DNA of 64,000 bases from Sumerlaeia bacterium (GTDB lineage: Bacteria > Sumerlaeota > Sumerlaeia > SLMS01 > JAHLLQ01). A model generated the notes under the pieces. The model did not search any database and was not told the DNA's origin. It worked only from the letters and a program-made list of their open reading frames with translations. The stretch's first letter is position 1; each line of letters begins with the position of its first letter. Below, one piece after another: positions 5,136 to 31,164 of the stretch. The position numbers were made by a program, and so were the translations under genes. The stretch is taken from assembly GCA_040219255.1 (NCBI GenBank), contig JAVJSW010000060.1, positions 6,249 through 70,248 of the forward strand. The letters are read 5' to 3'.

Positions 5136-8090
5136 GTGATGACCGGTAAGACGTCGAGGGTCTTCAAACCAACCATCGCCGCTTTCGCAGCCCTCGGGCT
5201 CGCTCTATCGCTGCTCGCGGCGTCTGTCATGGCCCAGGGCACGGGCGATGTCCTCTTCCGCGAGGACTTCCAGTCCTTCAGCAATGGCTCGCGCCCCTCG
5301 CAGGAGGACTGGGTCACTGTCGGGGCGACGGCGGACAATTACTGGTACATCGCCGACGGGCGGTTCGACACCGGCGACGCGGATCAATTTCCGTTCCTGG
5401 CCTGGGCCGTGATCGACGCGCCGGACTCGCGCTCCTGGTCCGAAATCTCCGCCAAGGCCGATTTCCTGATGCTGCAGCCCGCTGGCGAGGTCAACCTCGC
5501 GGTGCGCTGGCGCAGTCCCGCCAACTTCTATTACGCCAGCCTGTACGCCACCACCACCCCGGCCTCGCCCCGCGGCGTGGAATTCATCAAGGTGGTCAAT
5601 GGCATTGAGCAGACGCTGGCCCGCGCCGTCCATCCGGCCGATGTGAGCCTGCCGGCCTTTGAATCGAAATCCAATTTTTCGTCCCCGGACACGCTGGAAG
5701 TGCGCGCCGTCGGCAATCAGTTCGCCGTGCTGGTGAACGGCCGGACCGTTCTGACCGCCACGGACTCCGAGTTTTCTTCCGGCCAGGTGGCCATCGGCCA
5801 GCAGCGCAACCAGGTCCAGTTCGACAATATCGTGGTTTCCCGCACCTCCAGCATCGGCAGCAATCTGCCGCCCGGCGGCGGTTCGGCGCCACCCACGGGC
5901 GGCAACTTCTCGCTCCTGGTGGGCTCGGGACTCAATTCTTCCAAGGCCCGCACCCTCGAGAGCCAATTGGTCGGCATTCCCGTCCAACTGGAAGAAACCA
6001 GCCCCGGCACGTACTCCGTGTTTCTCGGCTCCTATCCGACGGCCGCCGCGGCCCAGAGCGCCATCTCCGATTACGAGCAGCAGGGGTTGTTCTTCCCCTA
6101 TGGCTATGAGGTGGTGGACCGGTCGCTGACGCGGCGCAGCCCCTCGGTGGCGAGCGCGGGCAATCAGCCCGCCCCATCGGGCGCGGTGTACCGCGTGGTG
6201 GTGGGCGAGAGCGACGACAAGTCCCTGGCCGATCAGTTGGCGGGCGACTTGCGCAACACGTCCGGCCTGAGCAACGTGGACGTCGCGGAGGTCGACGGCC
6301 GGCATCTGGTTTTCGTTGGCGAGGCCTTTCCCAACGAGCAGGCGGCCCAGCCCGTGGTGGACCAGATGCAGAACGAATACGGCCTGATCGCCGTGCGGTC
6401 CCAGCGCTTTGAGACCGATCCCTTGAACCGGGGCGGGAGCGGCGCGGGAGTGCGGGTTTCGGCTCTGATGAATTCTTTCGAATCGGCACTGGCGCAGAAT
6501 AATTTCGCCGTGGCCGAGAATCTGGCTTACCGCATCGGACGCGAGGACGCGGGCGCGGATGTCGGGGCTCTGATTGAACGCGTGCGGCAGCAGCGCAATA
6601 AGATCGAGCAGGGGGAAAATGAGAGGCGCGAGCGCATCAACAGCTTGAAGAAGGAAGCGGATATCGCGGAGACCGGGGGGAACTACGAGAGCGCGCAGAA
6701 CTACTATCAGCAGTTGGCGCGTCTGGCGGAAGAAGGCTCCGCCGATTACCAGTTGGCGCAGGCGGGTATCGATCGCACCGCGGCATTGATTCGCGGCCGG
6801 GCGGCGCAAGGCGCCACGGAAGGCGGCGGGGGGAATTTCCTGCTGATCGCCGGAATCGGCGCCGGAGTCCTGTTGCTGCTTGGCATCGCCGGTTTCGTGC
6901 TGGTCAGCCGCAAGAAGAACGCGCCGGCGCCCGTCGCCACGCCGATGATGCAGTCCACCAAGCCCTCCACGCCCGCCAAGCCCGCGGCGCCGAAACCCGA
7001 TCGCGCCGCCGCCAAGGCCGCGGCGGCAGCGGCGGGGGGCAACGCCGCCTCCTCCAGGAAGCAGGCCGCTCCTTCGGAAACCCCGGGTGGCCCCGTTCCC
7101 GCGATGTCTTCCGAGGAAAGCGGCAACCCGCTGCGGACGGTCACCGACAACGATCGCATCCGGCCGGGGTCGATCGCTCCGGCGGCCACGCCCGCCGGCA
7201 GCGAAACGGTGGCTCTGCCGCCCATCGGCGCACCCCGCAAACCCTCGTCCCGTGCTGCCAGAGCGCCTCAGGAAGCGGCCGCTTCGGGCGAAGGCAACGA
7301 GTTGGATCTGAAACTGGACTTCCTGACGGAGGAGCCGAAGGCCGAACCGGCGAGGGCTCCGAGCGGTCCGGCGGACGAGTCGGGCGACGCGGTGTCGCAG
7401 GAATTCGAGATCCCGCCGTTGCCGGATCTGGAGCCGGAAGCGAAACCGGCCGATCCGCGCCGCTCGAGCGAAGTGGCTTTGCCGACCGCGACGGTGCATA
7501 AGGCCAAGGCCGATCCGGATGTTTTCTACTTCCAGGATTTCGAGGACGAATCGCTCGGCCAGGCTCCCCAAAACTGGCGCGGCCAGTACGATTACGCCTC
7601 GCTGGAAGTCACCAACGGCGTGGCCGCCCAGGGGTCGTCGAAGTGCCTGCGCTTCGAGAAGAAGCAGGGAGTGGGCAGCGCCCTTTATTCCTGCAAATTC
7701 CCCGACGCGCGCGGCCGTATCGGCGTCGAATTCGACATTCGCTGCGATGACAAGAACAAGTACCTGCTCGGGGTTTACATCGAGAAGGACGGCGATTTCC
7801 GCCAGTCCATCAGCACCATCGTGCACCGCACGAACTCAAACTCGAACCCGACCCTGCGGGTGCAGAACGAGCCGGTCGCCTACGACTTCGGAACGTGGAA
7901 GCGCATCCGCTACGAGATTGATCTGCAACGGCAAATCGTCGACGCGTTCGTCGATGAGCAATCGATCATCATCGGCGCCCGCATGCCTCCCAACGGGCCG
8001 AAGGTCGTCAACACGTTGTCGATCCGCGACAACTTGGCGACGACCGGCATCCTGATGCTGGACAACATCAAGATTTTCCGGCGGAAGTAA
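5136..8090 (+). CDS. Large secreted/membrane protein: signal peptide, N-terminal beta-sandwich (LamG/DUF1080-like) domain, two SPOR-like repeats, one TM helix, Pro/Ala-rich disordered region, C-terminal second beta-sandwich domain
   Basis: 984 aa ORF with GTG at 5136 and ATG at 5139; hydrophobic N-terminus; TM 'FLLIAGIGAGVLLLLGIAGFVLV'; low-complexity 'PAPVATP...AAAAAGG' tract. Confidence 0.7.
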   Translation: MMTGKTSRVFKPTIAAFAALGLALSLLAASVMAQGTGDVLFREDFQSFSNGSRPSQEDWVTVGATADNYWYIADGRFDTGDADQFPFLAWAVIDAPDSRSWSEISAKADFLMLQPAGEVNLAVRWRSPANFYYASLYATTTPASPRGVEFIKVVNGIEQTLARAVHPADVSLPAFESKSNFSSPDTLEVRAVGNQFAVLVNGRTVLTATDSEFSSGQVAIGQQRNQVQFDNIVVSRTSSIGSNLPPGGGSAPPTGGNFSLLVGSGLNSSKARTLESQLVGIPVQLEETSPGTYSVFLGSYPTAAAAQSAISDYEQQGLFFPYGYEVVDRSLTRRSPSVASAGNQPAPSGAVYRVVVGESDDKSLADQLAGDLRNTSGLSNVDVAEVDGRHLVFVGEAFPNEQAAQPVVDQMQNEYGLIAVRSQRFETDPLNRGGSGAGVRVSALMNSFESALAQNNFAVAENLAYRIGREDAGADVGALIERVRQQRNKIEQGENERRERINSLKKEADIAETGGNYESAQNYYQQLARLAEEGSADYQLAQAGIDRTAALIRGRAAQGATEGGGGNFLLIAGIGAGVLLLLGIAGFVLVSRKKNAPAPVATPMMQSTKPSTPAKPAAPKPDRAAAKAAAAAAGGNAASSRKQAAPSETPGGPVPAMSSEESGNPLRTVTDNDRIRPGSIAPAATPAGSETVALPPIGAPRKPSSRAARAPQEAAASGEGNELDLKLDFLTEEPKAEPARAPSGPADESGDAVSQEFEIPPLPDLEPEAKPADPRRSSEVALPTATVHKAKADPDVFYFQDFEDESLGQAPQNWRGQYDYASLEVTNGVAAQGSSKCLRFEKKQGVGSALYSCKFPDARGRIGVEFDIRCDDKNKYLLGVYIEKDGDFRQSISTIVHRTNSNSNPTLRVQNEPVAYDFGTWKRIRYEIDLQRQIVDAFVDEQSIIIGARMPPNGPKVVNTLSIRDNLATTGILMLDNIKIFRRK

Positions 8091-8120
8091 ATCCGTTTGG
8101 GGCGGTGCCCCAGGCAGCGC

Positions 8121-9389
8121 TCAATCGAGGCGCCCGGAGCTGACGGCTTCGAGCGCCTTTTCTTTGTCGTAGCCTGTCAATTCCAGGAGGCGTGCCACCA
8201 CATCGCCGATGGCGCGGTTGGGGGTGCTGGCGCCGGCCGTGATGCCGACGATCATGTCGCCACCGGTGCCGCGGGGCGGCAACCAATCGGATGTGACGAT
8301 CTGATCGTGGCGGGCGCTGGGCTGGTGACGGATGGCGCGGTCGGAGTGCATCTCGGCCACATCGTCGATGTGAAAGGCGCGGGGGCAGTGGGCCTCGGCG
8401 ACTTCCAGCAGATGGCGCGTGTTGGAGCTGTTGTAGCCGCCGACCACGAGGGCCAGGTCCAGGGCGTTGTCGCGCAGAAGGGCCTTCATGGCGTCCTGGC
8501 GGTCTTGCGTGGCCGAGCAGATCGTGTCGAAGCTGCGAACGTTTTCCGCGCCCCGTTCTTCGCCGTCGCGGCGCTGGATCGATTCGGCCAGTCGGCGCCC
8601 GATGGCCAGCGATTCCGTCGCCAGCATCGTTGTCTGGTTCGCGACGCCGATTTTCCGGAGGTGTTTCTCGGGGTCGAAGCCTTCCGAAAAAGCGCCAGGA
8701 TCGAAATCCGCCATCAAGTCCGAGGCGGGCAGCCGCCCCTCGATAAAGTCGCACACGCGCTCGGTCTGGGCCATATTGCGCACCACCAGGAAATGGCCAC
8801 CGTTCGATGTGGCGTTGGAAACGGTGGCGATGGTTTCCTCATGATAGGCTTTGCCGTGGACGACTGAGGTGTAGCCCTCGCGGGCGTAGCGCTCGACGCG
8901 CTTCCAGACGTGGATCACGCTGCCACAGGTGGTATCGACGACGACGCAGCCGATGTCTTTCAGGCGCTGGAACAGCGGATGGGCCGCGCCAAAGGCGGGG
9001 ATCAGCACCACGTCCTCCGGGACGATGTCCTCGATGGTGAGTCCGTCGGCCTGCTGGCCCGAGAGGAAGCGGATGCCGAGTTCGCGCATGCGCCGGTTGA
9101 CGCGTGGGTTGTGGATGATTTCCGTCAGCAGAACGATGCGCCGATCGGGGAATTTGGCGAGGGTCTCGTACGCCATGTCGACGGCCTTGTCGACGCCGTA
9201 GCAGAAGCCGAAGTCCTTGGCCAGTCGGAGCTTGAGGCCGGGGAGGTCGAGGACGCCGCCGTTGGCGCGAATGGCGTCGACGAGGGCGCTGCTGTATTCC
9301 GCCGCCACGATGGGGGCGACGTCCTTCTTGAGGCCGAGGCTGGACTTGTAGTAAGTTTTTTCGCCTTTTGGCGTGGCGCTGGTGGTCAT
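8121..9389 (-). CDS. ispH: 4-hydroxy-3-methylbut-2-enyl diphosphate reductase (IspH/LytB), long form with a C-terminal extension
   Basis: 'FGFCYGVDKAVDMAYE', 'VHGKAYHEETIAT' and 'ANQTTM' match IspH motifs; ATG at 9389 verified; the 624 aa upstream extension is Arg/Pro-rich junk. Confidence 0.85.
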   Translation of the reverse strand: MTTSATPKGEKTYYKSSLGLKKDVAPIVAAEYSSALVDAIRANGGVLDLPGLKLRLAKDFGFCYGVDKAVDMAYETLAKFPDRRIVLLTEIIHNPRVNRRMRELGIRFLSGQQADGLTIEDIVPEDVVLIPAFGAAHPLFQRLKDIGCVVVDTTCGSVIHVWKRVERYAREGYTSVVHGKAYHEETIATVSNATSNGGHFLVVRNMAQTERVCDFIEGRLPASDLMADFDPGAFSEGFDPEKHLRKIGVANQTTMLATESLAIGRRLAESIQRRDGEERGAENVRSFDTICSATQDRQDAMKALLRDNALDLALVVGGYNSSNTRHLLEVAEAHCPRAFHIDDVAEMHSDRAIRHQPSARHDQIVTSDWLPPRGTGGDMIVGITAGASTPNRAIGDVVARLLELTGYDKEKALEAVSSGRLD

Positions 9390-9475
9390 CCGTGTCCCTT
9401 TGATCCGCAAAGCGTTGCGCTCTGGGTCCGGTTGCAAGGGCCGCGCCCGCCGGCGCCCCGGGTGGGGCTTTCGGT

Positions 9476-10042
9476 TTAGAAAACGCCCGAGTCTTCGTCG
9501 CTCTCGTAGGTCACGGCCACCGGCGGAGTAGCGAGGAAGAGGTTGGCCGTCAAGAGGCCGATGAGGTCGTACTGGCCCGATTCGAGGTTTTCCCGCGCGG
9601 AGGGCGGAAAGGCGATCTCGACGGTTTCGGAGATCTGCTGACCGGGATCGAGGCGCACGCGGCCAGTGGCCAGGGTGAACAGGCGTTCGTTGCTCCAGCG
9701 GTGGACCTCGACGCCGCGCACCGTCTGGACGATGACGTCGAAGCGCTGGCCGCTGTTGAAGACCAGGTCCGTGGGACCGGTGGAGACGTTGTCGAGAACG
9801 AGATCGATCTTCACGGTGTCCCCCGCATCGACGTCCGTCTGGTGAACGGTCATGCGCAGTTCGAGGCCCTTCTCGGCGCTCTTGAAGCGTGTGGTGCGGG
9901 CGTCGGACAGTTGGCTGCCGACGTTCTTGACCTGGCAGGCGGTCAGGGAGGCCATCAGGGGAAGGGCGGCCGCCAGAAGGGCCGGAATGAGCCATCCGCG
10001 GCGCGGGCGGATGGCGGAAAAATCGGATCGAAGCGTTCTCAT
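9476..10042 (-). CDS. Lipoprotein with a BsuPI-like (intracellular proteinase inhibitor) beta-sandwich domain
   Basis: Lipobox 'LMASLTAC'; 'DTVKIDLVLDNVSTGPTDLVFNSGQRFDVIV' resembles the BsuPI fold; ATG at 10042. Confidence 0.5.
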   Translation of the reverse strand: MRTLRSDFSAIRPRRGWLIPALLAAALPLMASLTACQVKNVGSQLSDARTTRFKSAEKGLELRMTVHQTDVDAGDTVKIDLVLDNVSTGPTDLVFNSGQRFDVIVQTVRGVEVHRWSNERLFTLATGRVRLDPGQQISETVEIAFPPSARENLESGQYDLIGLLTANLFLATPPVAVTYESDEDSGVF

Positions 10043-10310
10043 AGGGAAAGGGTCCTCCGCGTCATGGCCGGCATCGGCAGTCTTCGGATTGCCGGAGCGA
10101 TGGGTGAATTGGAGCCTTTCCGGGGGCCGGGGGACAAATGGAGTTTTGGTTTCCGGTGGCGAAAAATCCCGCCGCGATAAGCCTTGTGGAAACCCAATTC
10201 GGTTCTGTATCAACTGGCAATCCTTTTCAGGCCGGTCTGAGTCGGCTTGAAGGCGCCGGGTTCGTCCTTGGACTTTCCGGCGTCAGACCCGATGCATCGG
10301 AGGCATCCGC

Positions 10311-13300
10311 ATGTCCCTCAAATCCCGGCCCCTGGCGCTTCCCGGCGCCGCGGCCTTTGTCCTGGCTTCGGCTCTGGCACTGCCCGCCTGGGCTTCCAAC
10401 GAAGAAACGGCCGCCATTCCGGACAACCTGAAGGCCGCCATCGGCGCCATCACCTCCTCGGGCGGTTCTGACAAAGGCAACGATTTCGAAAACGCCGTCA
10501 AAGACCTCGAGAAGCGCGAGGGCTTCATCAACCTGTATATCAGCGAGGAGAAGAACCAGCTCCTGGCGGAAATCCCGGGCAACCTGATCGGCAAGGACCT
10601 GCTCCTCAGTTCTTCCATTTCCCGCGGCCCGAACCAAGGGTTCCAGTGGGGCAGCCTCATGATTCGCTTCGAGAAGCTCGAGGACGAACTCATCGTCGTG
10701 GCGCCCGATCCCTTCTACACCGCGAGCGGCACGCTGAAGGACGTGGTGGAACGGACCTATCCAGACCCGGTGGCGACGACTGTGCGGGTCCGGGCGGAGA
10801 AGGGAAAGAACGTCCTCATCGACCTGATGGATCTGTTCGGCAACAAGGCGTCGGCCCTTGCGGGAACGCGCCCCGCCGCCACGATCATGCAGCCGGGCAA
10901 GGCGAAGGCCTTCCCCAACAACGTCGTGGTGGAAATCGTTTTCCGCAATTCCCGCGGCGCCACGGGCATCACCTACAGCCTGGATCAGTTGCCCAACACG
11001 GGCTACAAGCCCCGCCAGGCGGACCAGCGCATCGGCTACTTCCTGACGGCGCAGAAGGATTTCTCGAAGGACGAGGAACAGCCCGACATCTTCGATCGCT
11101 ACATCAATCGCTGGCATCTGGAGAAAGCGGACCCGAGCCTTAAGCTCTCGCCGCCCAAGGAACCGATCGTCTTCTACCTGGAGGACTCAATCCCGGTACG
11201 TTACCGGCGCTGGGTGCGCCAGGGCGTCGAGGACTGGAACAAGGCCTTCGAGAAGATCGGCATCGTGGATGCCATCGTTGTGCGTCAGCAAACCAGCTCC
11301 AACGAATTCAAGGATCTGGATCCGGAAGACGCGCGCTACAACTTCATCCGCTGGATCACCAGCGAGTCGGCCTTCGCCATGGGTCCGAGCCGCGTCGATC
11401 CCCGCACGGGCCAAATCTACGACGCCGACATCATCTTCGACGAGAGCATGGTGCGGTACTATGTGGACAGCCATGAACTGTTCATCGAGAGCGTGCCGAA
11501 CAGCGCCTCGCTCTCGCCGAGGCTCCGGCACTGGTTGGCGTCCAATCCGTCGGCGCACCCGAATTGGTCGATGGTGCGGCCGGATCTGGCTTTGCGGATT
11601 CAGAACGATGCGGAGATGGCGGCGGCGGGCGTAACGCCGGAAGAACTCTTCGCGCGCGAACTGATAGGGAACCTGGATGGTTTCAAGAACCCGCACTACT
11701 GCTCGCTGGGCGAGCACGTCCGGGGCGAATTGGCGTTGGCCCGCATGGCCGCCATGGGCCGCGACTTCATCGTCTTTGAGCAGATGAAGGACGCGGCGAA
11801 GAAGGAAAAGGAAGCGGAAGAGAAAGCCGAAGCAGCCGCCGAGGACGATGCTTCCAGCAAGACCGTCGAAGTCGCGGAAGAGCTGATCGAGGAATTGGAA
11901 GAAGCCGCGGAAGCCGCGGAGGAAGAAGACGGCGAGGAAACCGCGGACGCCGAAGAGAATGGCTCGAACGGCAAGAAGCCGGAGAAGCGCAACCTGGATG
12001 AGTGGCCCGAGGAATTCATCGGCCCGCTGGTGCGCGAAATCATGGCCCACGAAGTGGGTCACACGCTCGGCCTGCGGCACAACTTCAAGGCCAGCACCTG
12101 GAAGAGCTACGAGGAAATCGTCAACACCGACGATCCGACCACGGCGACCATCGCCTCTGTGATGGACTACAATCCCTATGCGCTGAAGCCCGATGGCTCA
12201 CAGCCCGCGATGTGGATCACGCCGACCATCGGGCCCTACGATTACTGGGCCATCGAGTACGGTTACGCGATCCCCGGTTCGAACGATTATCCGCGCAACG
12301 AGGACAAACTCCTCAAGCAAATCACCGACAAGGTCGCTCAACCCGGTCATGACTACGGCACGGATGAGGATACCTGGGGGCCGGACCCGATGACGGTGCG
12401 GTTCGACCTGGGCAGCGATCCGCTGACCTTCGCCGCGGCCCGCGTGGATCTGGCGGATAAGATCCTCAACAACCTGATCGAGGCGGTCCTTCAGGAGGAC
12501 GATCCCTACAGCAAAGCCCGCGACGCCTTCGATGTGCTGTTCTACCAGCGGTTCAGCGCGGCCTACGCGGCGGCGCGGTTTGTGGGCGGGTACCACATCC
12601 GGCGCGACCAGCGCGGAGACACCGACGCCCGCCAGCCCATCGAAGTGGTGGACGCGGAAACGCAGCGCCGCGCCTTCAACATGCTTCTGGAGAAGGTTTT
12701 CGCCAAGGACGCCATCCAGGTGAAGCCGGAACTGCAGGTCTACCTGGCCGCCGACCGCTGGAGTCACCGCGGTTCCTCTGGCTGGTACCAGCCTTTGACC
12801 TACCCGATTCAGGACCGCATCCTGATGACGCAGAACAATATCCTGTTCATGCTGACCAACCCGGAGCGCGTGCAGTGGATCTACGACTCGGAGTTCACCT
12901 CCGAGGCGGAGGACCTGTTCACGCTGCCGGAAATGATGTCGGGCCTGACGGATTCGATCTGGAGCGAAGTGTTGCAGGCCGAAGGCGAGGGATCGCAGGA
13001 GAAGTACACGACGCGCAAGCCCTTCGTGGACAACCTGCGGCGCAACCTCCAGCGCAGCTACCTGGGCCAGCTGATCAAGATCGCCACCGGGGGCGACGAC
13101 AGCATGTATCCTGCGGTGTCGCGGACGCTGTCGCACGGCGAACTGGCGAAAATTGGCGACGCCATCGGCGGCGTGATGGAAAGCCCGCTGGCTTCTCAGC
13201 TGGACCCCTACACGGCGGCGCACCTGCGCGAGTCCAAGGCGCGGGTCGACGCGGCCCTCGACGCCCAGATCACCGTCGGCGGCAACCGGGGCGGCGGCTC

Positions 13301-13394
13301 GATCATCCTGATGCTGGGCCAGGAGGGGAACAGCGATCCCTCCGCCGGCGCGACCTTCACCGGCGACGCCCCCATGCCCCGCATGCGGCGCTAA
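10311..13394 (+). CDS. Secreted zinc metalloprotease of the DUF5117/DUF4953 family (HEXXH), with an internal acidic low-complexity tract
   Basis: Signal peptide; 'MAHEVGHTLGLRHNF' zincin motif; acidic stretch 'EEKAEAAAEDD...EEEDGEETADAEENG' at about 11800-11990. Confidence 0.8.
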   Translation: MSLKSRPLALPGAAAFVLASALALPAWASNEETAAIPDNLKAAIGAITSSGGSDKGNDFENAVKDLEKREGFINLYISEEKNQLLAEIPGNLIGKDLLLSSSISRGPNQGFQWGSLMIRFEKLEDELIVVAPDPFYTASGTLKDVVERTYPDPVATTVRVRAEKGKNVLIDLMDLFGNKASALAGTRPAATIMQPGKAKAFPNNVVVEIVFRNSRGATGITYSLDQLPNTGYKPRQADQRIGYFLTAQKDFSKDEEQPDIFDRYINRWHLEKADPSLKLSPPKEPIVFYLEDSIPVRYRRWVRQGVEDWNKAFEKIGIVDAIVVRQQTSSNEFKDLDPEDARYNFIRWITSESAFAMGPSRVDPRTGQIYDADIIFDESMVRYYVDSHELFIESVPNSASLSPRLRHWLASNPSAHPNWSMVRPDLALRIQNDAEMAAAGVTPEELFARELIGNLDGFKNPHYCSLGEHVRGELALARMAAMGRDFIVFEQMKDAAKKEKEAEEKAEAAAEDDASSKTVEVAEELIEELEEAAEAAEEEDGEETADAEENGSNGKKPEKRNLDEWPEEFIGPLVREIMAHEVGHTLGLRHNFKASTWKSYEEIVNTDDPTTATIASVMDYNPYALKPDGSQPAMWITPTIGPYDYWAIEYGYAIPGSNDYPRNEDKLLKQITDKVAQPGHDYGTDEDTWGPDPMTVRFDLGSDPLTFAAARVDLADKILNNLIEAVLQEDDPYSKARDAFDVLFYQRFSAAYAAARFVGGYHIRRDQRGDTDARQPIEVVDAETQRRAFNMLLEKVFAKDAIQVKPELQVYLAADRWSHRGSSGWYQPLTYPIQDRILMTQNNILFMLTNPERVQWIYDSEFTSEAEDLFTLPEMMSGLTDSIWSEVLQAEGEGSQEKYTTRKPFVDNLRRNLQRSYLGQLIKIATGGDDSMYPAVSRTLSHGELAKIGDAIGGVMESPLASQLDPYTAAHLRESKARVDAALDAQITVGGNRGGGSIILMLGQEGNSDPSAGATFTGDAPMPRMRR

Positions 13395-13421
13395 GCCCTC
13401 CACCGTCTCCGACAGGACAGT

Positions 13422-13473
13422 CCCCGCCGGCCCCCGCCACTCCGAACCGAGTGGTGGGGGCCGGTTCTTTTTA
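13422..13473 (+). terminator. Rho-independent terminator after the metalloprotease gene
   Basis: Hairpin ccccgccggcccccgccactc...gagtggtgggggccgg followed by ttctttttatt. Confidence 0.6.
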
Positions 13474-14760
13474 TTCCGCCCCCTCCCGGCCACGCATCAT
13501 CCGGATTTTCAGGGGCGAGAGCGTGTCCAGGTGCACGTCGCGTTGCGGGAATGCGATGGTGATGTTGGCTTCCTTGAACAGTTCGTCGATGCGGAATCGG
13601 ATATCGCTCTGGATTTGGCGCTGCTCCATGAAGGATTTCACCCGGGCCCAGAAGAAGCAGGTGAAGCCCAGGGCATTGTCGCCAAAGTCCTCGAACAGAA
13701 CGATCGGCGTGGGAGTTTTGTCGACGCGCGGGTGTTCGTCGATGGCCTGGCGCAAGAGGCGTTCGGCGTCGCGGGTGGGGGAACCGTAGGCGATGCCGAC
13801 CTTGACTTCCGTGCGGACTTGATCGTCGCGGCCGTAGGTCCAGTTGATGAGCTTGTTCTCCACCAACTGCCGGTTCGGCACCAGCATGTCCACATTACCC
13901 GGCAGGCGGATGCGGGTGCGGCGGGCGCCGATTTCTTCGACGCGGCCTTGCTCGCCATCGAACTCGATCAGGTCGTTGGGGCGGATCGGTTTCTCGAACA
14001 GCAGGATCAACCCGCCGATGAAGTTGGCGAGGATTTCCTGGGCGCCGAAGCCCACCGCCAAGGCGACCGCGCCACCGAGGAAGGCGAAAATAGAAAGCGG
14101 AATGCCTGAAAAATCGAGCGCGAAGAACGCGATGATCACCACCAACAGAACCCGCACGAGGCGTTCGAGATAGTCGGACGACGCCCTGTTGAGGCGGAAC
14201 TTCTTGAAAACGCGCTTGCGGGCCCACGCCGACGTCAGCCTGGCCAGCAGCAATCCGATGACGAAAATCAGCAGGGCGATCAGCAGCTTGAACAGCGTGA
14301 TTTTCGAACCGTTCACCACCAGCCCGATGTCGAAGAAAATGTACGCCAGCCAACCGAGGCCGAAGCGTTCGGCGAATTCCTTGACCTCCATCTCGGTTTT
14401 CAAGACCGAGCCTTCCAGAGCCTCGAGGACCGCCGGCCTGGTCGTTCCCAAATCCACCACAAGGGCCGAAGGTGGCAGGGTGGCGGCCGGCGATGCCGTG
14501 GGCGTGGGCGACGGCGGGGCTGTGGCTGTTGGGGTCGTGGGAGCGCTGTCGGTGGCGGCGGGGGCGCCGGCTGGGGCGGCGACGGTCGGGTCCGGCTCAG
14601 CCCGGGGCGCGGGGCTGTCCGGTGGAGGCGCCGCGGCCGTCTCGCTCGATCCGCTGGAGCGGACGGTCTGTCCGGCTTCGTAGAGGGCGCTGTCGGCGAA
14701 GGCCGCGGCGGTCAGCAGGAGGTAAAGGGTGGCGGGAAAAACAAAACGTAGGAGGGGCAT
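13471..14760 (-). CDS. Mechanosensitive ion channel, MscS family, with signal peptide and Pro/Thr-rich N-terminal region
   Basis: MscS core 'GAQEILANFIGGLILLFEKPIRPNDLIEFDGEQGRVEEIGARRTRIR'; ATG at 14760. Confidence 0.8.
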   Translation of the reverse strand: MPLLRFVFPATLYLLLTAAAFADSALYEAGQTVRSSGSSETAAAPPPDSPAPRAEPDPTVAAPAGAPAATDSAPTTPTATAPPSPTPTASPAATLPPSALVVDLGTTRPAVLEALEGSVLKTEMEVKEFAERFGLGWLAYIFFDIGLVVNGSKITLFKLLIALLIFVIGLLLARLTSAWARKRVFKKFRLNRASSDYLERLVRVLLVVIIAFFALDFSGIPLSIFAFLGGAVALAVGFGAQEILANFIGGLILLFEKPIRPNDLIEFDGEQGRVEEIGARRTRIRLPGNVDMLVPNRQLVENKLINWTYGRDDQVRTEVKVGIAYGSPTRDAERLLRQAIDEHPRVDKTPTPIVLFEDFGDNALGFTCFFWARVKSFMEQRQIQSDIRFRIDELFKEANITIAFPQRDVHLDTLSPLKIRMMRGREGAE

Positions 14761-14915
14761 CTTCCGTCCAGACAATCGAAGTCCCTCGAGTTACAGCAAA
14801 ACCCATTCTTGGCGAAGGCGAGGCTTGACGGGACGGGCCGCCTGACGCTTGCTGCTACGCGCTTCGCGGGCGTGAATCCTTACCCAAAAAAACACCGCCG
14901 CCCGCCAGATCGATC

Positions 14916-17444
14916 ATGGATTTCTCCACGCGCGACGCCCTCGGGCTCGACGCCGTTCTCGAACAACTCGCCGATCACGCCGCCTCCACCCTCGGGAGCG
15001 ACTGGGTGCTCGCGCGCGAACCCGCTTCGGATTCGGACGCCGCGCGGGAGCAACTCGCCCTGACGGCCGAGGTCCTCGATCTTATCGATCGGGGCCAGAA
15101 ACCGCCGCTGGGCGGCCTGAGCGACGTCGGCGAGAGCCTGGCCATCGCGGCCCAGGCGCACTCCTCCCTGCCGCCGGAGCGCTGGATGCCTCTCGCCCGG
15201 CACTTGCAGGCGGTCGAGGCGCTCTCGCAATTCGGCGCCAACCGGGCCGAATCGGCGCCGCTGTTTTCCAAGATTTGCGAGCGCCTGAGTACCGAACCAG
15301 ATCTCTCGAGCGCCATCGAACGCACCTTCGATCACGACGGCCGCATCCGCGATAACGCCTCGCCGGGGCTCAGCCGGGCACGCTCGGACCTGCGCCGCGC
15401 GGAAAGCCGCGTCTTCTCGGAAATCAACGGCGCCCTCGGCCGCCTGCGCGGCGACAGCATTCTACAGGACGATTACTCGACGGTGCGCAACGGCCGCCAC
15501 GTGGTTCCTGTGAAGGCCAATTTTCGTGGCCGCGTCAACGGCATCGTCCACGGCTCCTCGTCCAGCGGCGAAACGCTTTTCATCGAGCCGGCCAACGTGG
15601 TCGAGGCCGCCAACGACGTGGAAATCGCCCGCGAGCGCGAAGCCGAGGAAGTCCGCAAAATCCTGGAAGCGCTCACCGCCCAACTCCGGCCCTTCGCCCC
15701 CGTGGCCAAAGCCGATTTGCCGGCGCTGGCTCTCATCGATGGCACGACAGCCCTGGCCCGCGCGGCGGCCGAGCACGGTTGGCGCATCCCGACCCTGACC
15801 GCCGACGGCAGACCGCTGGCGCTGCTCTCGGCCCATCACCCTCTGCTCCACCTGAGCCAGCGAGATAAGAGCGTCCCCATCACGGTGGAACTCTCGCCCG
15901 ACGACTATTGCGTCATCCTGAGCGGCCCCAACGCCGGCGGCAAGACGACGGCCATGCGGACCCTGGCGTTGAGCGCGGCGCTGGCCCAGTGTGGTTCGGC
16001 GATCCCCGCGGCGATGGAATCGGAACTGCCGGTCTTCCGCGGTTTCTACGCCGACATCGGCGATCAGCAAGACCTCGGCGAAGGCGTCTCCACCTTCAGC
16101 GGCCACATCCGCCGCATGCGCGAAATCCTGGAGGAAGCGGACGATCAATCGCTGGTACTGCTCGATGAACTCGGCACCGGTACGGACCCGACGGAAGGCG
16201 GCGCGCTGGCGCAGGCGATCCTGGAAGAATTGATGGCCCGCGCCCGCCTGACCATCGCCACGAGCCATCTGCAGCCCATCAAGCAGTGGGCCGCCGACAC
16301 GCCTGGCGCCCGCAACGCCAGCTTCACCCTGGACCCGCAGACGCACCGGCCCACGTTCCGCCTGCGGCTCGACCTGCCGGGGGCCAGCGAGGCGTTCTTC
16401 ATCGCCGAGAACGAAGGCTTGGACGCGGTGCTGCTCAAGCGGGCGCGGTCCCTGGTCGGCGAGCAGCAGGTCCGCATGAGCGAGTTGATCGCCCAGGTTC
16501 AGCAAATGGAGCAGGACTTGGCCCGCGAGCGCCGCGACGCGGCCGAACGCGCCGAACGGCTCCGCACGCAGCTCGAAATGGCCGAACAGCGCGCCAACGA
16601 TCTGATCGAAGAGCGCAAGCGCGTGCGGCGCATGGCGCTGCAAGAGCGCGACTCCGCCGCCCGCGAAGTGCGCGAGCAGTTCGAGCGCTTGATCGCCGAG
16701 CTGCCCAGCGAGGAAGCCCTCGAGCAGCGCAAGAAGCTGCTCTCGGAAGGCCGCCGCACCATCGCCGGCGAGCAGGAGCGCGTCCGCGGCGAGCTGCGCG
16801 CCATCGAGCAAGGCGAAGGCGACCCGGTGGAGGAGCTGGCGGAGGGCCAGAAAGTCTTCGTGCGGGCCTTTGGGCGCTGGGGCGTTGTCGTCGATGTGGC
16901 GCACGACGGCAGCAAGGCCCGGGTCGACGTCGGCGGCATCAGCGCCTTCGTCCCCGCCGAGGGATTGCTCGACGCCGAGCCGAAGAAAGTCCTGCCCTTC
17001 GAGCCGGACCCGGAACCGCAGGCCGCCGCCGCCCTGAGCAAAACAAAGAAGAAGCCGAAAAAGAGCAAGAAGCTCAAAGCCGCCCTGGAAAACGCGGAAA
17101 CGCTGCCCGATCCCGAGCCGGTGCGCCGCCCCGTTTCCACCCTCTCGCAGCGCTTTCCCACGAAAGCCACCCAGCGAAAGAAAACCGGTTTCCGCCGCGA
17201 ACCGGTTCCCATGTACCTGGATCTGCACGGCTTCCGCGCCATCGAAGCCATCGAAGCGATCGACCGCTACCTCGACCGCGCGCTGCTTTGCGACTACCCC
17301 TACGTCCGCATCATCCACGGCGTCGGCGAAGGCCTCCTCTACAAGACCGTCCGCGAATTCCTCAACGGCTACCCCTCGGTCAAGAGCTGGCGCCCGGGAA
17401 CGCCGGAAGAAGGCGGGGGCGGGGTGACGGTGGTGGAGTTTTAG
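14916..17444 (+). CDS. mutS2: Endonuclease MutS2 (MutS domain III/V ATPase plus C-terminal Smr domain)
   Basis: Walker A 'GPNAGGKTTAMRTLAL', 'LLDELGTGTDPTEG', and C-terminal Smr 'LDLHGFRAIEAIEAIDRYLD'; ATG at 14916. Confidence 0.85.
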   Translation: MDFSTRDALGLDAVLEQLADHAASTLGSDWVLAREPASDSDAAREQLALTAEVLDLIDRGQKPPLGGLSDVGESLAIAAQAHSSLPPERWMPLARHLQAVEALSQFGANRAESAPLFSKICERLSTEPDLSSAIERTFDHDGRIRDNASPGLSRARSDLRRAESRVFSEINGALGRLRGDSILQDDYSTVRNGRHVVPVKANFRGRVNGIVHGSSSSGETLFIEPANVVEAANDVEIAREREAEEVRKILEALTAQLRPFAPVAKADLPALALIDGTTALARAAAEHGWRIPTLTADGRPLALLSAHHPLLHLSQRDKSVPITVELSPDDYCVILSGPNAGGKTTAMRTLALSAALAQCGSAIPAAMESELPVFRGFYADIGDQQDLGEGVSTFSGHIRRMREILEEADDQSLVLLDELGTGTDPTEGGALAQAILEELMARARLTIATSHLQPIKQWAADTPGARNASFTLDPQTHRPTFRLRLDLPGASEAFFIAENEGLDAVLLKRARSLVGEQQVRMSELIAQVQQMEQDLARERRDAAERAERLRTQLEMAEQRANDLIEERKRVRRMALQERDSAAREVREQFERLIAELPSEEALEQRKKLLSEGRRTIAGEQERVRGELRAIEQGEGDPVEELAEGQKVFVRAFGRWGVVVDVAHDGSKARVDVGGISAFVPAEGLLDAEPKKVLPFEPDPEPQAAAALSKTKKKPKKSKKLKAALENAETLPDPEPVRRPVSTLSQRFPTKATQRKKTGFRREPVPMYLDLHGFRAIEAIEAIDRYLDRALLCDYPYVRIIHGVGEGLLYKTVREFLNGYPSVKSWRPGTPEEGGGGVTVVEF

Positions 17445-17590
17445 GCAGATGGTTGAGTGTGGCTTTTTGGTCACAAAATCTAGCGATTTTTGGCGTCATA
17501 ATGCGTTGTTTTCCATTGTCTCGCAAATCGATGTTAAATTTACTCCGTCCAGCGTTTTCAATGCCCTAACCTTTTCACCCGGAGTTCATC

Positions 17591-18079
17591 ATGAAGTTCC
17601 AGAACATTCTCTTGGCCATGGGTTTCCTGGCAGCTACTTCCATCCCTAATATGACCACCGCTGAGTGCGATACCTGCGGCGGCAAGTGCGAAAAGTCTGT
17701 GTCGGCCAGAGATTACAAGGCTTGCACCAATTGGCTGGGAGGTGGTGGTCAGGTCTACATGACCCGTCACGCGAGCTATCGGTGCGACCGAAACAAGCAG
17801 ATTGAGGGCGGATGCAGCGGCACCACCCCAAGTGGTCCAGCCTATACGATTTTTGGCTACGCCCACAATATCAACGAAAACGAATGCGTCGTGCGCTTCG
17901 AACTGAACGGCACGGTCTCGACGATCATTTCCGATTCAGCCTCGCCCTCATTGCCCGAAGGTTCCGTGGTTCTTTCGGTGACCTGCTATGACCGTGATCA
18001 ATGCATCGTGATCAGTTATGAAGAGCCAACTGAAAGCGGCACTGCGAACGAATGCGCCTACCCGTCCTGCAGCGCCTAG
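17591..18079 (+). CDS. Small secreted cysteine-rich protein (12 Cys), unknown function; low-GC gene
   Basis: Signal peptide 'MKFQNILLAMGFLAATS'; GGAG RBS at 17581; about 54% GC versus about 66% in flanking DNA. Confidence 0.55.
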   Translation: MKFQNILLAMGFLAATSIPNMTTAECDTCGGKCEKSVSARDYKACTNWLGGGGQVYMTRHASYRCDRNKQIEGGCSGTTPSGPAYTIFGYAHNINENECVVRFELNGTVSTIISDSASPSLPEGSVVLSVTCYDRDQCIVISYEEPTESGTANECAYPSCSA

Positions 18080-18174
18080 CCGCCTGCAAGCTTCGGCAAA
18101 TAAACAATGCTTCCATCTCAAACCCCTTGGCTCTCCTATGCCAAGGGGATCTTATCATCTTTAAGGACCGCTTC

Positions 18175-19533
18175 ATGTCATTCAGATACTGGGTCGTCTT
18201 ATTCATCTTTTTATGTCCCCTGATCGCATTTTGTCAAGAGCCTGACATTCGTGATTTTCCCCCTTTGGAAGCCGCAATCGCATGGCCAATCATCGAGCAG
18301 GGGACGTTCGAAGGCGTCGTGGAATCTTCCGGACCTCCTCCGATGACGTCACGCGAGGTGGAAGCAAGTCTAATGGATGTCGAAACCGACTTTCTTGCGA
18401 CTTTAGCGGAGAGTGGTGAGGAGCTGTCGGCGGATTACCGGGAGATACTGGACGAATTCCTTGAGGAGCAAAGAGGTATATTGGAAAAGCTGCTTCTGCC
18501 TACGAATTCAAAAAAGAATTTTACGGTGTCGCTTTCCGGTCACCAGATGCGGCTTGAGTCGAGGATTTACGAGGATGATAGTTCCGTTTCCGAAGAGACG
18601 ATGACGGTGATTGGTCCAGAGGGGAAAAAGATCCTCACATCGAATATCCGATATTCCCGCCCAAGTGCCTACATATTTTTGGACGATGCCAAGAACGCTC
18701 CGGAAGACGCTATTTACGGCAACATCCTGGGTACGATCGGGACGGAGTTAGCCAAGGCGTCCACCCTGAATTTGTCGAGCAAGGATCTGGAAGGCGACAA
18801 GGTCTATTGGTTCGAGGCCACGGACATCAAGACAGACTTTTTCGACATTTACAGGGATGGCGCGGTTTCCTTCACGCGTATTGGCGTACGCTCTCAACAC
18901 GGCAACCGCCTCTCCGTCTATTTCAGCCAAGTTGGCGAAACCTTTCGACTCATCAATCGATATGACGACTTCCGAGAGGTTCCTGGATGGGGGTGGTATC
19001 CGCATGAAATCACGCTCATAACTCAGAATGGCGTCTTTGACAAGGAGGTTCTCCAGCGTATCCGCTCCGGGGCTCTGGCCCCCAACACCGACGAAGCGAT
19101 CGCCGCCTTCGCCCCTCAAGTAGAGAATGTGAAGACGATTACTTTGAGCAAAGTGGACATCGAAACACCGGTGGAAAAAGACGTTTTCGATTTCGAAATT
19201 CCAGTCGGCACCGTAGTCAAAGTCTACACCGGAGATGAGTCCAGCACCTACGTTCAGGGGGACTTTTCCGCGAGAGATGTTGTTACCGGCAGAAAGGTTG
19301 ACATGGCGGCGGGTCTGGAATTGGCCGAGGGAACTTCCCAGACTAAGGAGGAGATTGCCGAAACGCCTACACGTGAAATTGTTTCCGATACGCCCGCCAA
19401 GGTGGAACAGAAGGTAGAACCGCATGTCGTCGAACCAGCGAAGTCCAAGCGAAATGGAATGATCTTCGGCCTTCTTGCCGTTTCCTTCGTTATTGGCTTG
19501 GGACTTGTATTCAAGGTCTTTCGTAAGAAGTAA
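18175..19533 (+). CDS. Secreted protein with a C-terminal TM anchor, unknown function (possible LolA/RseB-like fold); low-GC gene
   Basis: ATG at 18175 with N-terminal signal peptide 'MSFRYWVVLFIFLCPLIAFC'; C-terminal 'GMIFGLLAVSFVIGLGLVFKVFRKK'; about 48% GC. Confidence 0.55.
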   Translation: MSFRYWVVLFIFLCPLIAFCQEPDIRDFPPLEAAIAWPIIEQGTFEGVVESSGPPPMTSREVEASLMDVETDFLATLAESGEELSADYREILDEFLEEQRGILEKLLLPTNSKKNFTVSLSGHQMRLESRIYEDDSSVSEETMTVIGPEGKKILTSNIRYSRPSAYIFLDDAKNAPEDAIYGNILGTIGTELAKASTLNLSSKDLEGDKVYWFEATDIKTDFFDIYRDGAVSFTRIGVRSQHGNRLSVYFSQVGETFRLINRYDDFREVPGWGWYPHEITLITQNGVFDKEVLQRIRSGALAPNTDEAIAAFAPQVENVKTITLSKVDIETPVEKDVFDFEIPVGTVVKVYTGDESSTYVQGDFSARDVVTGRKVDMAAGLELAEGTSQTKEEIAETPTREIVSDTPAKVEQKVEPHVVEPAKSKRNGMIFGLLAVSFVIGLGLVFKVFRKK

Positions 19534-19679
19534 TTTCCCTATCTCCACAGCGAATCTCAGTCTCCACAACGATCCAAATCTGCGCGGCCTTTCCCACGGC
19601 CCCCACCTCCCACTGCCTTTTGCAACGCATCGAAAACGTTGACACCGAAATGTGGTGCAATTAGGAATGCGTTTGGATT

Positions 19680-19985
19680 TTGCGGGCGTACAAAGGAGAA
19701 GTGGAAGGCTATTCCGATCAGCGAATCCTCGCCGACTGCGATCATTTCGGTTTCGAACTCGCCTCGCCTCCGACCCCTTGGCTGCGGGCGATGGCCTCGC
19801 GAACCGTCCGCGAATGCCAAGATGCTCTCCGCGTGGAAGCCACCGCCCAAGGCTGCTCTCCCGAAGTCGTTGAGGAGGAGATCGGCTGGGAAGTGCTCGC
19901 CCAGAAGAACCCGAATCGCTCCGTCCTTACCCAGCCTCCCGATTGGGTTGAGAATGTTTGCGGGCGGTACTTCGGGTCCCGCTGA
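19680..19985 (+). CDS. Possible small protein (101 aa), TTG start; hypothetical
   Basis: GC3-rich codon pattern consistent with host coding; aaaggag motif overlapping the start; no recognisable domain. Confidence 0.3.
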   Translation: MRAYKGEVEGYSDQRILADCDHFGFELASPPTPWLRAMASRTVRECQDALRVEATAQGCSPEVVEEEIGWEVLAQKNPNRSVLTQPPDWVENVCGRYFGSR

Positions 19986-20383
19986 ACTCTGTCAGCCCCG
20001 CACCCGCCACCCCCGACCAAATTAGACCGTGATTTTCAAACGCCTTGGGTCTCGCTCGCCAGGTTACAAAAGTTTTCTTCGCTTTTTGGCGGAATAACGA
20101 GAAGCTGTCCCCGAAGCCGCGTGCCTCATTGCAAGCCCAAAGTGCCAAGATCGGACGGCTTTATCAAAATCTAACCCACGGTCCAGGCTTTCGTAAGACT
20201 CGAAAACAGAGCGTATTGCACCTGTCTCCGAACCGACCCGGGATAAAAACCCATCGGGCCCCCGCAAGCCACCAAGCAACTTTTTGTACTCTCCAAAGCG
20301 AAGAGCTGGATATTTTCGATTTTTTTCTCAATTGTTCACCATTGATTCCTTGCCAACATCCCCCACAAGGCGCCCACCCAACC

Positions 20384-22267
20384 ATGAGATTGAATCGGAC
20401 CATTACCCTCCTTCCCACCCTCTGTTTCGCGCTCGGAGCCCTGCCGGCTCTGGCGATCACCAGCGAATCGGAAAACAACGGCACCATTTCCCAGGCCGAT
20501 GGCCCGGTGAATTCCGGCGTCAACGTGACCGGCTCGATGGGAAGCGGTGACTCCTATGACACCTTCTATTTCGACACGACGTCGAACGGCACGATCAGTC
20601 TCACCCTGACCGAAGCACGCAACAACGCAGACTACGACCTGTTCCTCTACAACAGCTCGGGGAGCCTTCTGACGTCCGCCGAGACCGGCGCCAACCCGGA
20701 GACGCTGTCCTATTCCGGCGCCTCCGCCGGGCGCTACTATGTCGAACTCTATCGCTACAGCGGCAGCGGCAACTATACCCTCCGCGCCACCTTCCCCACC
20801 GGCGGAGCCAGCCCGACCCCGACCCCGACGCCCACGGCAACCCCCACGCCGACCCCGACCCCGACGCCTACGCCCACTCCGACTCCGACTCCGACTCCGA
20901 CGCCGGTGCCGGGCATCACGCCTTTAACCTCGGGCGTTCAGGTCAGCGGCACCGTCGCCCAGGGGGAATGGGACGATTACTCGATCCTCGTCGCCTCTGG
21001 CGCCACGCGGCTCGACATCGTTCAGGGCGGCAGCAGCGGCGACGCCGATCTTTATGTCCGCTTCGGCGCCCAGCCTTCCTCCACCGTCTACGACTATCGC
21101 CCCTACTTGAACGGCAACAACGAGTCGGTCACCGTCAACAACCCCTCGGCCGGCACGTGGTACATCAGCTCGCGGGGCTACTCGGCGGCCAGTTATACCC
21201 TCGTGGCGACAGTCACAGGCTCATCTCCAACCCCAACTCCAACCCCCACCCCCACCCCCACGCCGACGCCCACAGCGACCCCGACGCCGACCCCGACGCC
21301 GGGCGGATGCAACGAAGGCGCACGCCCGTCGAAACCCGGCGGCTTCACCAACTACCTGACGGGCAACGCAGCGGACGTCTGCGTGTCGCCGATGTCGGGT
21401 CCGGGCGTGATGCTGATGGGCGGCAATTTCGACATCGATGAAGCCTTCACCACCCACGTTTCGCCGATCCTGGCGGGCGGCGACGTGGTGGTTCTGCGCA
21501 CCGGCGCGAGCAACGGCTATCAGGATTACCTGTTCGGCCTGCTGGCTCCCGACTCGGTGGAAACGCTGGTGATCGACACGGTGACCAAGGCCAATTCGGC
21601 CTATGCCAGTTGGGTCATCCGCACCGCGGAATTCGTCTACATCGCCGGCGGCGATCAGGCCGAATACCTCAACGCCTGGAAGGGCACCGCCACGGAAGAC
21701 GCCATCCGCTACGTTTACGATAAGGGCGGAGTCGTGGGCGGCATTTCCGCCGGCTGCGCCATCATGGGCGAAGTCATCTACGACCCGGACGGCGTATCGG
21801 GCATCCTGGCCAGCGAGGCGCTGTCGAACCCGTGCCACCCGAACATGGTGCTCAGCAACGACTTCCTGAACTTCCCGCTGACGAACAACATCATCACCGA
21901 CACGCACTTTGCCCAGCGCGACCGCATGGGCCGCCTCGGCACCTTTATGGCCCGCATCGGCCAGTCCGGTTTCACACCCTTCTCGAACCCCATCGTGGGC
22001 GTCGGCGTGGACGAAGACACCTCGATGTTCATCAACAAGAACGGCGTCGGCTTCGTCCAGGGCGACGCGGCGGTGTACGTTCTGAGCGACACCGGCTCGA
22101 CCGTGCGCCAGCGCGTCCAGTGCGGCCAGAGCCTGCAATACCTCAACGTTCAGCGCATCAAACTGACGGTGGGCGACACCTACAACTTCACCAACGGATC
22201 GCACACCGGGGCCTCGGCGACGCTGAGCTTCAGCAACGGCGCCATCACGCCAAGCAACCCGTACTAA
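20384..22267 (+). CDS. Secreted peptidase S51-like (cyanophycinase/dipeptidase E fold) with two N-terminal PPC (pre-peptidase C-terminal) domains joined by Thr-Pro repeat linkers
   Basis: Signal peptide; 'GGDQAEYLNAWKG...GGISAGCAIMGE' S51-like; TP repeats; ATG at 20384. Confidence 0.65.
   Translation: MRLNRTITLLPTLCFALGALPALAITSESENNGTISQADGPVNSGVNVTGSMGSGDSYDTFYFDTTSNGTISLTLTEARNNADYDLFLYNSSGSLLTSAETGANPETLSYSGASAGRYYVELYRYSGSGNYTLRATFPTGGASPTPTPTPTATPTPTPTPTPTPTPTPTPTPTPVPGITPLTSGVQVSGTVAQGEWDDYSILVASGATRLDIVQGGSSGDADLYVRFGAQPSSTVYDYRPYLNGNNESVTVNNPSAGTWYISSRGYSAASYTLVATVTGSSPTPTPTPTPTPTPTPTATPTPTPTPGGCNEGARPSKPGGFTNYLTGNAADVCVSPMSGPGVMLMGGNFDIDEAFTTHVSPILAGGDVVVLRTGASNGYQDYLFGLLAPDSVETLVIDTVTKANSAYASWVIRTAEFVYIAGGDQAEYLNAWKGTATEDAIRYVYDKGGVVGGISAGCAIMGEVIYDPDGVSGILASEALSNPCHPNMVLSNDFLNFPLTNNIITDTHFAQRDRMGRLGTFMARIGQSGFTPFSNPIVGVGVDEDTSMFINKNGVGFVQGDAAVYVLSDTGSTVRQRVQCGQSLQYLNVQRIKLTVGDTYNFTNGSHTGASATLSFSNGAITPSNPY
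20809..20912 (+). repeat. Coding tandem repeat (Thr-Pro linker 1) inside the S51 gene
   Basis: Imperfect ccgac(g/c)cc(c/g)ac repeats encoding TPTPTP... Confidence 0.7.
21223..21305 (+). repeat. Coding tandem repeat (Thr-Pro linker 2) inside the S51 gene
   Basis: Same repeat class encoding SSPTPTPTPTPTP... Confidence 0.7.
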
Positions 22268-22298
22268 AGCGCCGCCTGGAAACCCCAAGGCACCTCTC

Positions 22299-22340
22299 GC
22301 CCCCGGCCCGCCCCAGCGCAGGCCGGGGGCGGATTGCTTA
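22299..22340 (+). terminator. Putative terminator hairpin after the S51 gene
   Basis: gcccccggcccg...cgggccgggggc hairpin; weak U-tract. Confidence 0.35.
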
Positions 22341-22696
22341 AAGGTAGCACGGGCGTCCCGCCCGTGACCCGCCAGCCGCCTGCCACGCCCTATTCTGTTA
22401 TCGCAAACGCACTGTTCGCAGAGGAAGCCGAGAGTCGGCTCTCGGAGAAAAAGCGCTGCTGGGCACGGGCGGGACGCGCCGTGCTACACAGAAATATTAA
22501 ACCATGGTATTACCGAGATAAGAAACACATCCTCCACCACATGGTTGCAACCACCCTCATCCGCGCCATCCGCGCGATCCGCGCGATCCGCAGCAAAAAA
22601 TCCCCCTCCCTCTTGCCAAGCCCCCGCCCCCTGTGCCAGCGTCCCCCGCTCGGCGCGCTTGCGCTTTACACCACAGGACTTACGCCACCGATCCTC

Positions 22697-31079: not shown

Positions 31080-31164
31080 GCGAGCGTGGCGGAATTGGCA
31101 GACGCACCAGGTTTGCGTCCTGGCGGGGAAACCCGTGGGAGTTCGAGTCTCCCCGCTCGCACCA
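31080..31164 (+). tRNA. Class II tRNA (Leu-type body, 13-nt variable arm, A73, encoded CCA) whose anticodon loop reads UUUGCGU, giving anticodon UGC (Ala) as read
   Basis: Manual fold: acceptor GCGAGCG/CGCTCGC; D-arm GGCGGAATTGGCAGACGC (near-identical to bacterial tRNA-Leu); anticodon stem CCAGG/CCTGG; T-arm GGGAG-TTCGAGT-CTCCC. Confidence 0.7.

Follow-up and report, generated by a model that had tools for sequence, protein, structure and literature searches.

The locus described here lies in a 64,000-nt stretch of DNA from a Sumerlaeia bacterium (hereafter the window), in which two co-oriented genes, A (17591-18079) and B (18175-19533), stand between mutS2 (14916-17444, + strand) and a gene for a secreted protein with an S51 peptidase domain and PPC domains. 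Together A and B are referred to below as the cassette. Analysis of composition, protein families and distribution was carried out for both genes, the flanking DNA and a second locus carrying a related pair, and the features around which the analysis turns are as follows.

17445-17590, + strand: AT-rich leader from the mutS2 stop to gene A (146 nt; GC content 0.43, lowest of all intergenic stretches in the window)
17591-18079, + strand: gene A, open reading frame (ORF) of 162 aa with 11 Cys, predicted to be secreted (hypothetical protein RLY93_14860 in the annotation)
18123-18148, + strand: hairpin within the 95 nt separating A from B, found by folding (perfect 9-bp stem, 8-nt loop, CCCCUUGGC...GCCAAGGGG)
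18175-19533, + strand: gene B, ORF of 452 aa, predicted type-I membrane protein, annotated as hypothetical protein RLY93_14865
18901-19218, + strand: conserved core of B (residues 243-348), delimited by its phmmer/BLASTP match to the protein P0124 from the second locus
19534-20383, no strand assigned: spacer of 850 nt separating B from the S51/PPC peptidase gene and containing a 101-aa ORF (19680-19985, + strand) that the gene caller skipped

Gene content and composition of the islet

Gene A is preceded by a GGAG ribosome-binding site at 17581-17584, 6 nt 5' of its ATG. Its product carries a classic short signal peptide (approximately residues 1-24), followed by an acidic mature part of about 138 aa with an isoelectric point (pI) of 4.8. 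The original prediction of a 162-aa secreted Cys-rich protein with a GGAG ribosome-binding site therefore stands, with the Cys count corrected from 12 to 11. No sigma-70-like promoter was found by promoter scan on the + strand of the leader, and Rfam, promoter and terminator scans returned nothing in 17300-20500; the hairpin at 18123-18148 was not called by the terminator scan, and a moderately U-rich stretch lies directly 3' of it.

The start of B at 18175 is that of the gene caller; an alternative start at 18052 would make B overlap A and was not chosen. Hydropathy identified two hydrophobic segments, residues 1-25 and 426-451, the latter followed by a basic tail (RKK), which agrees with the signal peptide and C-terminal transmembrane (TM) anchor proposed earlier for a second gene of 452 aa. 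Combining hydropathy and regional composition, the protein can be laid out as a signal peptide (1-20), an acidic helical region (~55-110), a beta-rich region (~111-360), a charged stalk (361-428), a TM helix (~429-447) and the RKK tail, where the assignments of helical and beta-rich regions were taken solely from a low-confidence structure model. The conserved core contains two motifs, WYPHE and F-[DE]-x-E-x-P-x-G-T, 59 residues apart. Judged from these features, both products are predicted to be exported by means of Sec signal peptides, and B is predicted to be a type-I membrane protein with nearly all of its mass outside the cytoplasm. An N-terminal signal peptide, C-terminal TM helix and basic cluster are also typical of PEP-CTERM and LPXTG sorting-signal proteins; unlike those, neither B nor P0124 has a conserved motif before the helix, and neither matches an NCBIfam sorting signal.

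The intergenic region of 850 bp downstream of B and its 101-aa ORF, both noted previously, are present, the ORF being uncalled by the gene caller and without a family match. No gene was called in this spacer (19534-20383), and it gave no Rfam match and no Pfam match for ORFs on either strand. Its membership in the cassette is uncertain.

In 300-nt windows, GC content was 0.64-0.71 across mutS2, fell to 0.50 at 17400-17699 and stayed at 0.48-0.56 to approximately 19650, confirming a sharp drop directly after the mutS2 stop. The lowest 1-kb bin of the entire 64 kb was 18001-19000 (GC 0.511, compared with 0.548 for the second lowest bin). A recovery near 19560, as initially suggested, was not seen, with values remaining at 0.51-0.60 until about 20400-20550. 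By raw tetranucleotide chi-square, the segment 17501-20500 was the top outlier of the window (z 7-10), as anticipated for an atypical islet, while GC skew showed nothing specific there.

GC content at third codon positions (GC3) was 0.66 in A and 0.60 in B (0.55-0.64 in 300-nt steps along B), compared with 0.76-0.91 in well-supported host genes of the window. On either side of the islet it was higher, 0.81 over the final 300 nt of mutS2 and 0.79 over the opening 300 nt of the S51 gene, amounting to a drop of ~0.2 with sharp steps exactly at both gene borders. GC at first codon positions was also below host values (0.47 in A and 0.55 in B vs 0.62-0.72). Since the deficit falls on synonymous sites, amino-acid composition cannot account for the low GC, an explanation named at the outset as one that would have counted against a horizontal origin. 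Other intergenic stretches of the window span 0.48-0.72 in GC content, and the 850-nt spacer, at 0.56, falls inside that span, which places the end of the coding islet at 19533.

Two undescribed protein families and a second cassette

Family scans of A, B, the 101-aa ORF and the homologues from the second locus were conducted against Pfam, NCBIfam, PHROGs and PADLOC. A, B and the ORF gave no match above noise in any of them, and a PDB profile search returned nothing for B, in line with the earlier impression that neither protein belongs to a recognised family. Sub-threshold matches to Anthrax-tox_M (E 0.032), Rz-like spanin (E 0.014) and HbpS-like (E 0.055) were treated as noise, and PDB profile matches of A (XPB and spike fragments, E>0.02) were rejected as chance. 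A phage spanin (Rz/Rz1) identity was rejected as well: the PHROG match at E 0.014 is confined to the signal-peptide region of A, with no phage genes or phage DNA similarity.

A word-indexed search of 5.8 billion proteins with A and B as queries returned only the queries themselves. An exhaustive phmmer search of B against a library of 1.84 billion representative proteins yielded a single credible relative, the 485-aa protein P0124 (E 2.5e-4 for the whole library); two further matches, P0123 and P0125, were rejected as short alignments to long proteins with internal repeats. No further family members were found in JGI metagenome contigs scanned with the B alignment, in IMG/VR scanned with both alignments, or by tblastn on plasmids and blastn on phages. 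A two-motif degenerate DNA pattern of the B core, verified on both known loci, matched only the window and the contig encoding P0124. Neither the window nor the loci fetched for comparison contained a paralogue of A or B. A and B thus represent two protein families without any prior description.

P0124 is encoded on L017, an 8,118-bp Logan contig from run SRR26038644 with a GC content of ~37%. By BLASTP, residues 243-348 of B align without gaps to residues 260-365 of P0124 (106 aa, 27% identity), and the score of this core is 22.6 standard deviations above that of shuffled sequences. Beyond the core, the N-terminal helical part is marginally similar (z 2.1), and elsewhere no similarity can be detected. 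The two proteins are nevertheless alike in architecture, sharing a similar length and an acidic helical region, a beta-rich region, a charged linker and a C-terminal TM helix with basic tail. The P0124 gene was probably called short (L017 2329-2415): an in-frame ATG 29 codons upstream completes a signal peptide with a basic n-region (MYKDVRTRYSNRGYARHLINSVNSLSCIA-MIWIC...).

Directly upstream of the P0124 gene, on the same strand, lies a gene for P0126, a 163-aa protein that carries a signal peptide and has 13 Cys. With numbering from the predicted N-terminus of each mature protein, Cys residues fall at the following positions.

A: 2, 5, 9, 21, 41, 51, 75, 108, 114, 131, 136
P0126: 3, 5, 8, 21, 28, 40, 49, 77, 105, 113, 115, 130, 133

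All 11 Cys of A are matched in order in P0126 at a displacement of no more than 3 residues. When 13 Cys were placed at random, none of 200,000 trials reached 11 matches (the best, 10, occurred in 25 trials); the register depends on the chosen cleavage sites, which adds a few implicit extra trials. Motifs common to A and P0126 are C-D-x-C-G-(G)-K-C-E at the mature start, P-E-G-x-V-V, and C-x(2-4)-C located 2-3 residues from the end. As the number of Cys is odd in both proteins, one conserved Cys is probably unpaired.

A hairpin with a 17-bp stem (L017 2199-2236, z -5.5) occupies the same relative position after the small gene as the hairpin in the window. Given that the gene pair, the Cys scaffold and the hairpin are common to the two loci, the A-B pairing is conserved, and the cassette is very rare. 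In L017, the cassette is compositionally native, with GC3 of 0.33-0.36 compared with 0.29-0.34 in neighbouring genes. The other genes of that contig encode a spermidine-synthase/TPR protein, a DUF1573 protein, a UbiA family protein and a prenyltransferase/squalene-cyclase-repeat protein, none of which has a counterpart in the window. Each protein of L017 forms a singleton cluster.

Origin of the cassette

We consider lateral acquisition the probable origin of the cassette. The original prediction of a horizontally acquired unit is supported by the GC3 deficit, by the lack of a B relative in other Sumerlaeota and by the existence of a compositionally native low-GC copy, and it is not supported as regards mobility marks and flanking repeats. 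No relatives of B were found in other Sumerlaeota, although more than 100 MutS2 relatives from the phylum were present in the same databases, and the mutS2 neighbourhoods of three further Sumerlaeota contain neither A nor B. The distribution is patchy, with the only B relative in a 37%-GC contig among unrelated neighbours, albeit with the caveat that the nearest relative of the host is distant. With about even confidence, we hold the fuller reading in which A and B form a real coding two-gene accessory cassette, most likely derived from a lower-GC donor and partly adjusted to its host, with B as the putative membrane-tethered partner of A.

Several observations weigh against this reading. The tetranucleotide outlier status of 17501-20500 was lost after correction for base composition, so that the anomaly is essentially a GC shift with no distinct oligonucleotide signature. 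No integrase or transposase is present among the called genes, and the sole tRNA of the window is located at 31080, with none flanking the cassette. An att-like 31-nt pair at 17484/20080 shrank to a 9-mer seed at chance level and was rejected, and the best flank repeat was equalled or exceeded in 246 of 500 shuffles; the direct repeats sought at the flanks thus did not materialise as anything significant. In addition, no close relative of the host has been sequenced (the best MutS2 match being 52% identical), and an empty site could therefore not be demonstrated. Relatives of A were sought by word-index search only, which is insensitive. Plain sequence similarity between A and P0126 is weak (global z 2.3, BLASTP E 6.8), so the homology of the two rests on Cys scaffold, size and position. 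Single-sequence AlphaFold2 models of A and B were unusable, with a predicted local distance difference test (pLDDT) score of 39-40; Foldseek comparison of these with PDB, which yielded nothing at E<=0.001 and, for the B model, TM-scores of 0.1-0.3, is accordingly treated as meaningless. Finally, only two cassettes are known, ~25% identical and too diverged to point to a donor. Beyond these points, no phage or plasmid similarity was detected at the islet.

A rather unlikely alternative is that A and B are native, lineage-specific, fast-evolving genes, with low GC arising, for example, from weak selection or young age and orphan status from sparse sampling of this deep-branching lineage. Sampling around this host is indeed sparse, the closest MutS2 being 52% identical among 5.8 billion proteins and, in the GTDB species set, 56% identical over an incomplete gene. 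Gene order around mutS2 is scrambled in every relative available, and downstream of mutS2 the relatives L001, L014/L015 and L016 have no gene in common with the window, which makes these neighbourhoods uninformative. The missing mobility signature and the host-like GC-corrected tetranucleotide usage would also fit native genes. However, such an origin is difficult to reconcile with a GC3 fall of ~0.2 exactly at the gene borders and with a homologous cassette among entirely different neighbours in a 37%-GC contig. Moreover, the B core is detectable at the distance of L017, so Sumerlaeota orthologues should have surfaced, and none did.

Misjoining of a low-GC fragment from another organism into the Sumerlaeia contig, which the abrupt GC change and the nature of the sequence as a metagenome-assembled genome (MAG) might suggest, is highly improbable. 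The islet is flanked on either side by sequence of host type in a single 332,581-bp contig. The source run, SRR26147846, holds the metagenome of Coleofasciculus sp. WW12, a mat-forming cyanobacterium kept in non-axenic culture (PMC11785472), and a Logan assembly made independently from that run is 100% identical over 14,191 bp (window 8175-22365). This span includes both junctions, which are therefore real and not the product of a binning or assembly chimera.

Taken by itself, the islet is ordinary: a small, compositionally foreign orphan of a kind found in most genomes. It resembles other atypical islets of orphan genes in the drop of GC and GC3 over a few co-oriented genes between housekeeping genes, and in consisting of genes absent from relatives and without family assignment; it differs in having no integrase, tRNA target or direct repeats and in measuring only 2-3 kb. 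Unlike most orphan islets, the A-B pair is kept as a unit in a second, unrelated genome. Two orphans held together in order, sizes, export signals, Cys scaffold and hairpin in otherwise unlike genomes point to a functional unit under selection. An acquired cassette would also rank among the few signs of gene flow into Sumerlaeota, a phylum that is poorly known.

One further low-GC tract was noted in L001, the sole Sumerlaeota relative in the GTDB scan, at 7000-9200 (GC 0.40-0.45 vs ~0.58), ~6 kb downstream of mutS2. It spans an ORF of 711 aa (7054-9189, minus strand) that bears no relation to A and B.

Possible roles of A and B, and neighbouring genes

From the features described above, A may be pictured as a small, acidic, beta-rich soluble protein with approximately five disulfides and one spare Cys, residing in the periplasm or outside the cell. 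B would be anchored in the cytoplasmic membrane by its C-terminal helix and would present an acidic helical and beta-rich ectodomain on a charged stalk of ~65 residues. The intergenic hairpin might attenuate or stabilise the transcript, such that A would be made in excess of B, and B could then act as a membrane-tethered receptor, holder or neutraliser that binds A via its stalk-borne ectodomain. A direct interaction, with the ectodomain of B holding A, is offered as a tentative suggestion.

A more ambitious and unlikely proposal is that the pair constitutes a new and deeply diverged envelope system, composed of a disulfide-knotted secreted ligand A with a conserved unpaired Cys and a dedicated stalk-tethered receptor B with a new beta-rich domain (WYPHE / FxFExPxGT core), which would be mobile between distant lineages as a two-gene unit, for instance as a new kind of secreted toxin-immunity or cell-cell recognition module. 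As a candidate new pair of extracytoplasmic proteins, the cassette is a clean and minimal case to test, and with two members its significance is speculative. Effector/immunity and surface-module functions, both raised at the outset, found no support from family, structure or context tests.

Bacteriocin operons are laid out as a structural gene, a leaky hairpin and an immunity or accessory gene. The order of a small secreted Cys-rich gene, a stem-loop and a membrane-protein gene, kept in both loci, is alike, and a cassette that is accessory, rare and foreign in composition would also suit a secreted, disulfide-stabilised bacteriocin-like toxin A, made in excess, with B as the immunity protein guarding the membrane of the producer. 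We regard this as quite unlikely, since neither protein matches a toxin, bacteriocin, immunity or defence family in Pfam, NCBIfam or PADLOC, and no ABC transporter or C39 peptidase lies nearby in either locus, where the neighbours are mutS2 and the S51/PPC peptidase gene (window) or the spermidine-synthase/TPR and DUF1573 genes (L017). The pair further differs from bacteriocin-type operons in having no leader-peptide type and no processing or export genes. At 452 aa, B greatly exceeds immunity proteins of the usual size, and most of it is extracytoplasmic and outside the membrane; the acidic character of A (pI 4.8) is atypical of membrane-active bacteriocins.

That B is a tethered LolA/RseB-like carrier of hydrophobic ligands, with A as its cargo or an unrelated neighbour, appears improbable. 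As no more than a lead, the B core ends in a hydrophobic-x-F-x-F-x-x-P-x-G-x-x-V pattern reminiscent of the strand that closes LolA-like domains at the C-terminus. About 11 beta strands and helices are predicted in B by the low-confidence model (pLDDT 39); its extracytoplasmic beta-rich domain of ~250 residues with helices would be comparable to that of LolA/LolB/RseB carriers (CL0048), and the neighbours in L017 include UbiA and squalene-cyclase-like genes. However, all LolA-clan sequence tests were negative, leaving the LolA-like idea of the original prediction unsupported: neither B, P0124 nor the extended L017 protein matched Pfam CL0048 (LolA, LolA_like, DUF4367, MucB_RseB, LppX_LprAFG), residues 101-375 of B had no clan match in Pfam even at E up to 10, NCBIfam gave none, and the PDB profile search was empty. 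Foldseek on the B model, itself unusable, produced no LolA-like hit. Typical LolA-like proteins, in addition, do not have the acidic helical N-terminal region, long charged stalk and C-terminal TM anchor of B.

The gene following the islet (20384-22267, + strand) encodes a 627-aa secreted protein with two PPC domains, Pro/Thr-rich linkers and an S51 domain; the linkers are encoded by a 12-nt periodic repeat at 20812-20925. The S51 domain scored best against cyanophycinase TIGR02069 (E 1.2e-22, 80.6 bits, under the cutoff of 126.6). With this best match, and a MAG that derives from a Coleofasciculus co-culture, the protein could be an extracellular cyanophycinase-like enzyme feeding on the cyanobacterial reserve polymer.

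Upstream, positions 8175-14775 of the window (via L018 1-6586) are rich in secreted and protease-related genes, including those for a BsuPI proteinase-inhibitor domain protein and a 1027-aa DUF5117/DUF4953 putative metalloprotease, along with an MscS channel. No link between the secreted and protease-related genes of this region and A or B was found.

The second compositional outlier of the window is a gene at 40384-41142 (- strand) for a 252-aa NYN-domain (PIN-like nuclease) protein, with a GC content of 0.49 and GC3 of 0.55, which may be another acquired gene. It lies directly downstream of a ribonucleotide reductase gene (41139-48074, - strand), whose 2311-aa product is a class II (B12-dependent) enzyme interrupted by inteins, recognised by Pfam as three Intein_splicing stretches and two LAGLIDADG homing-endonuclease domains.

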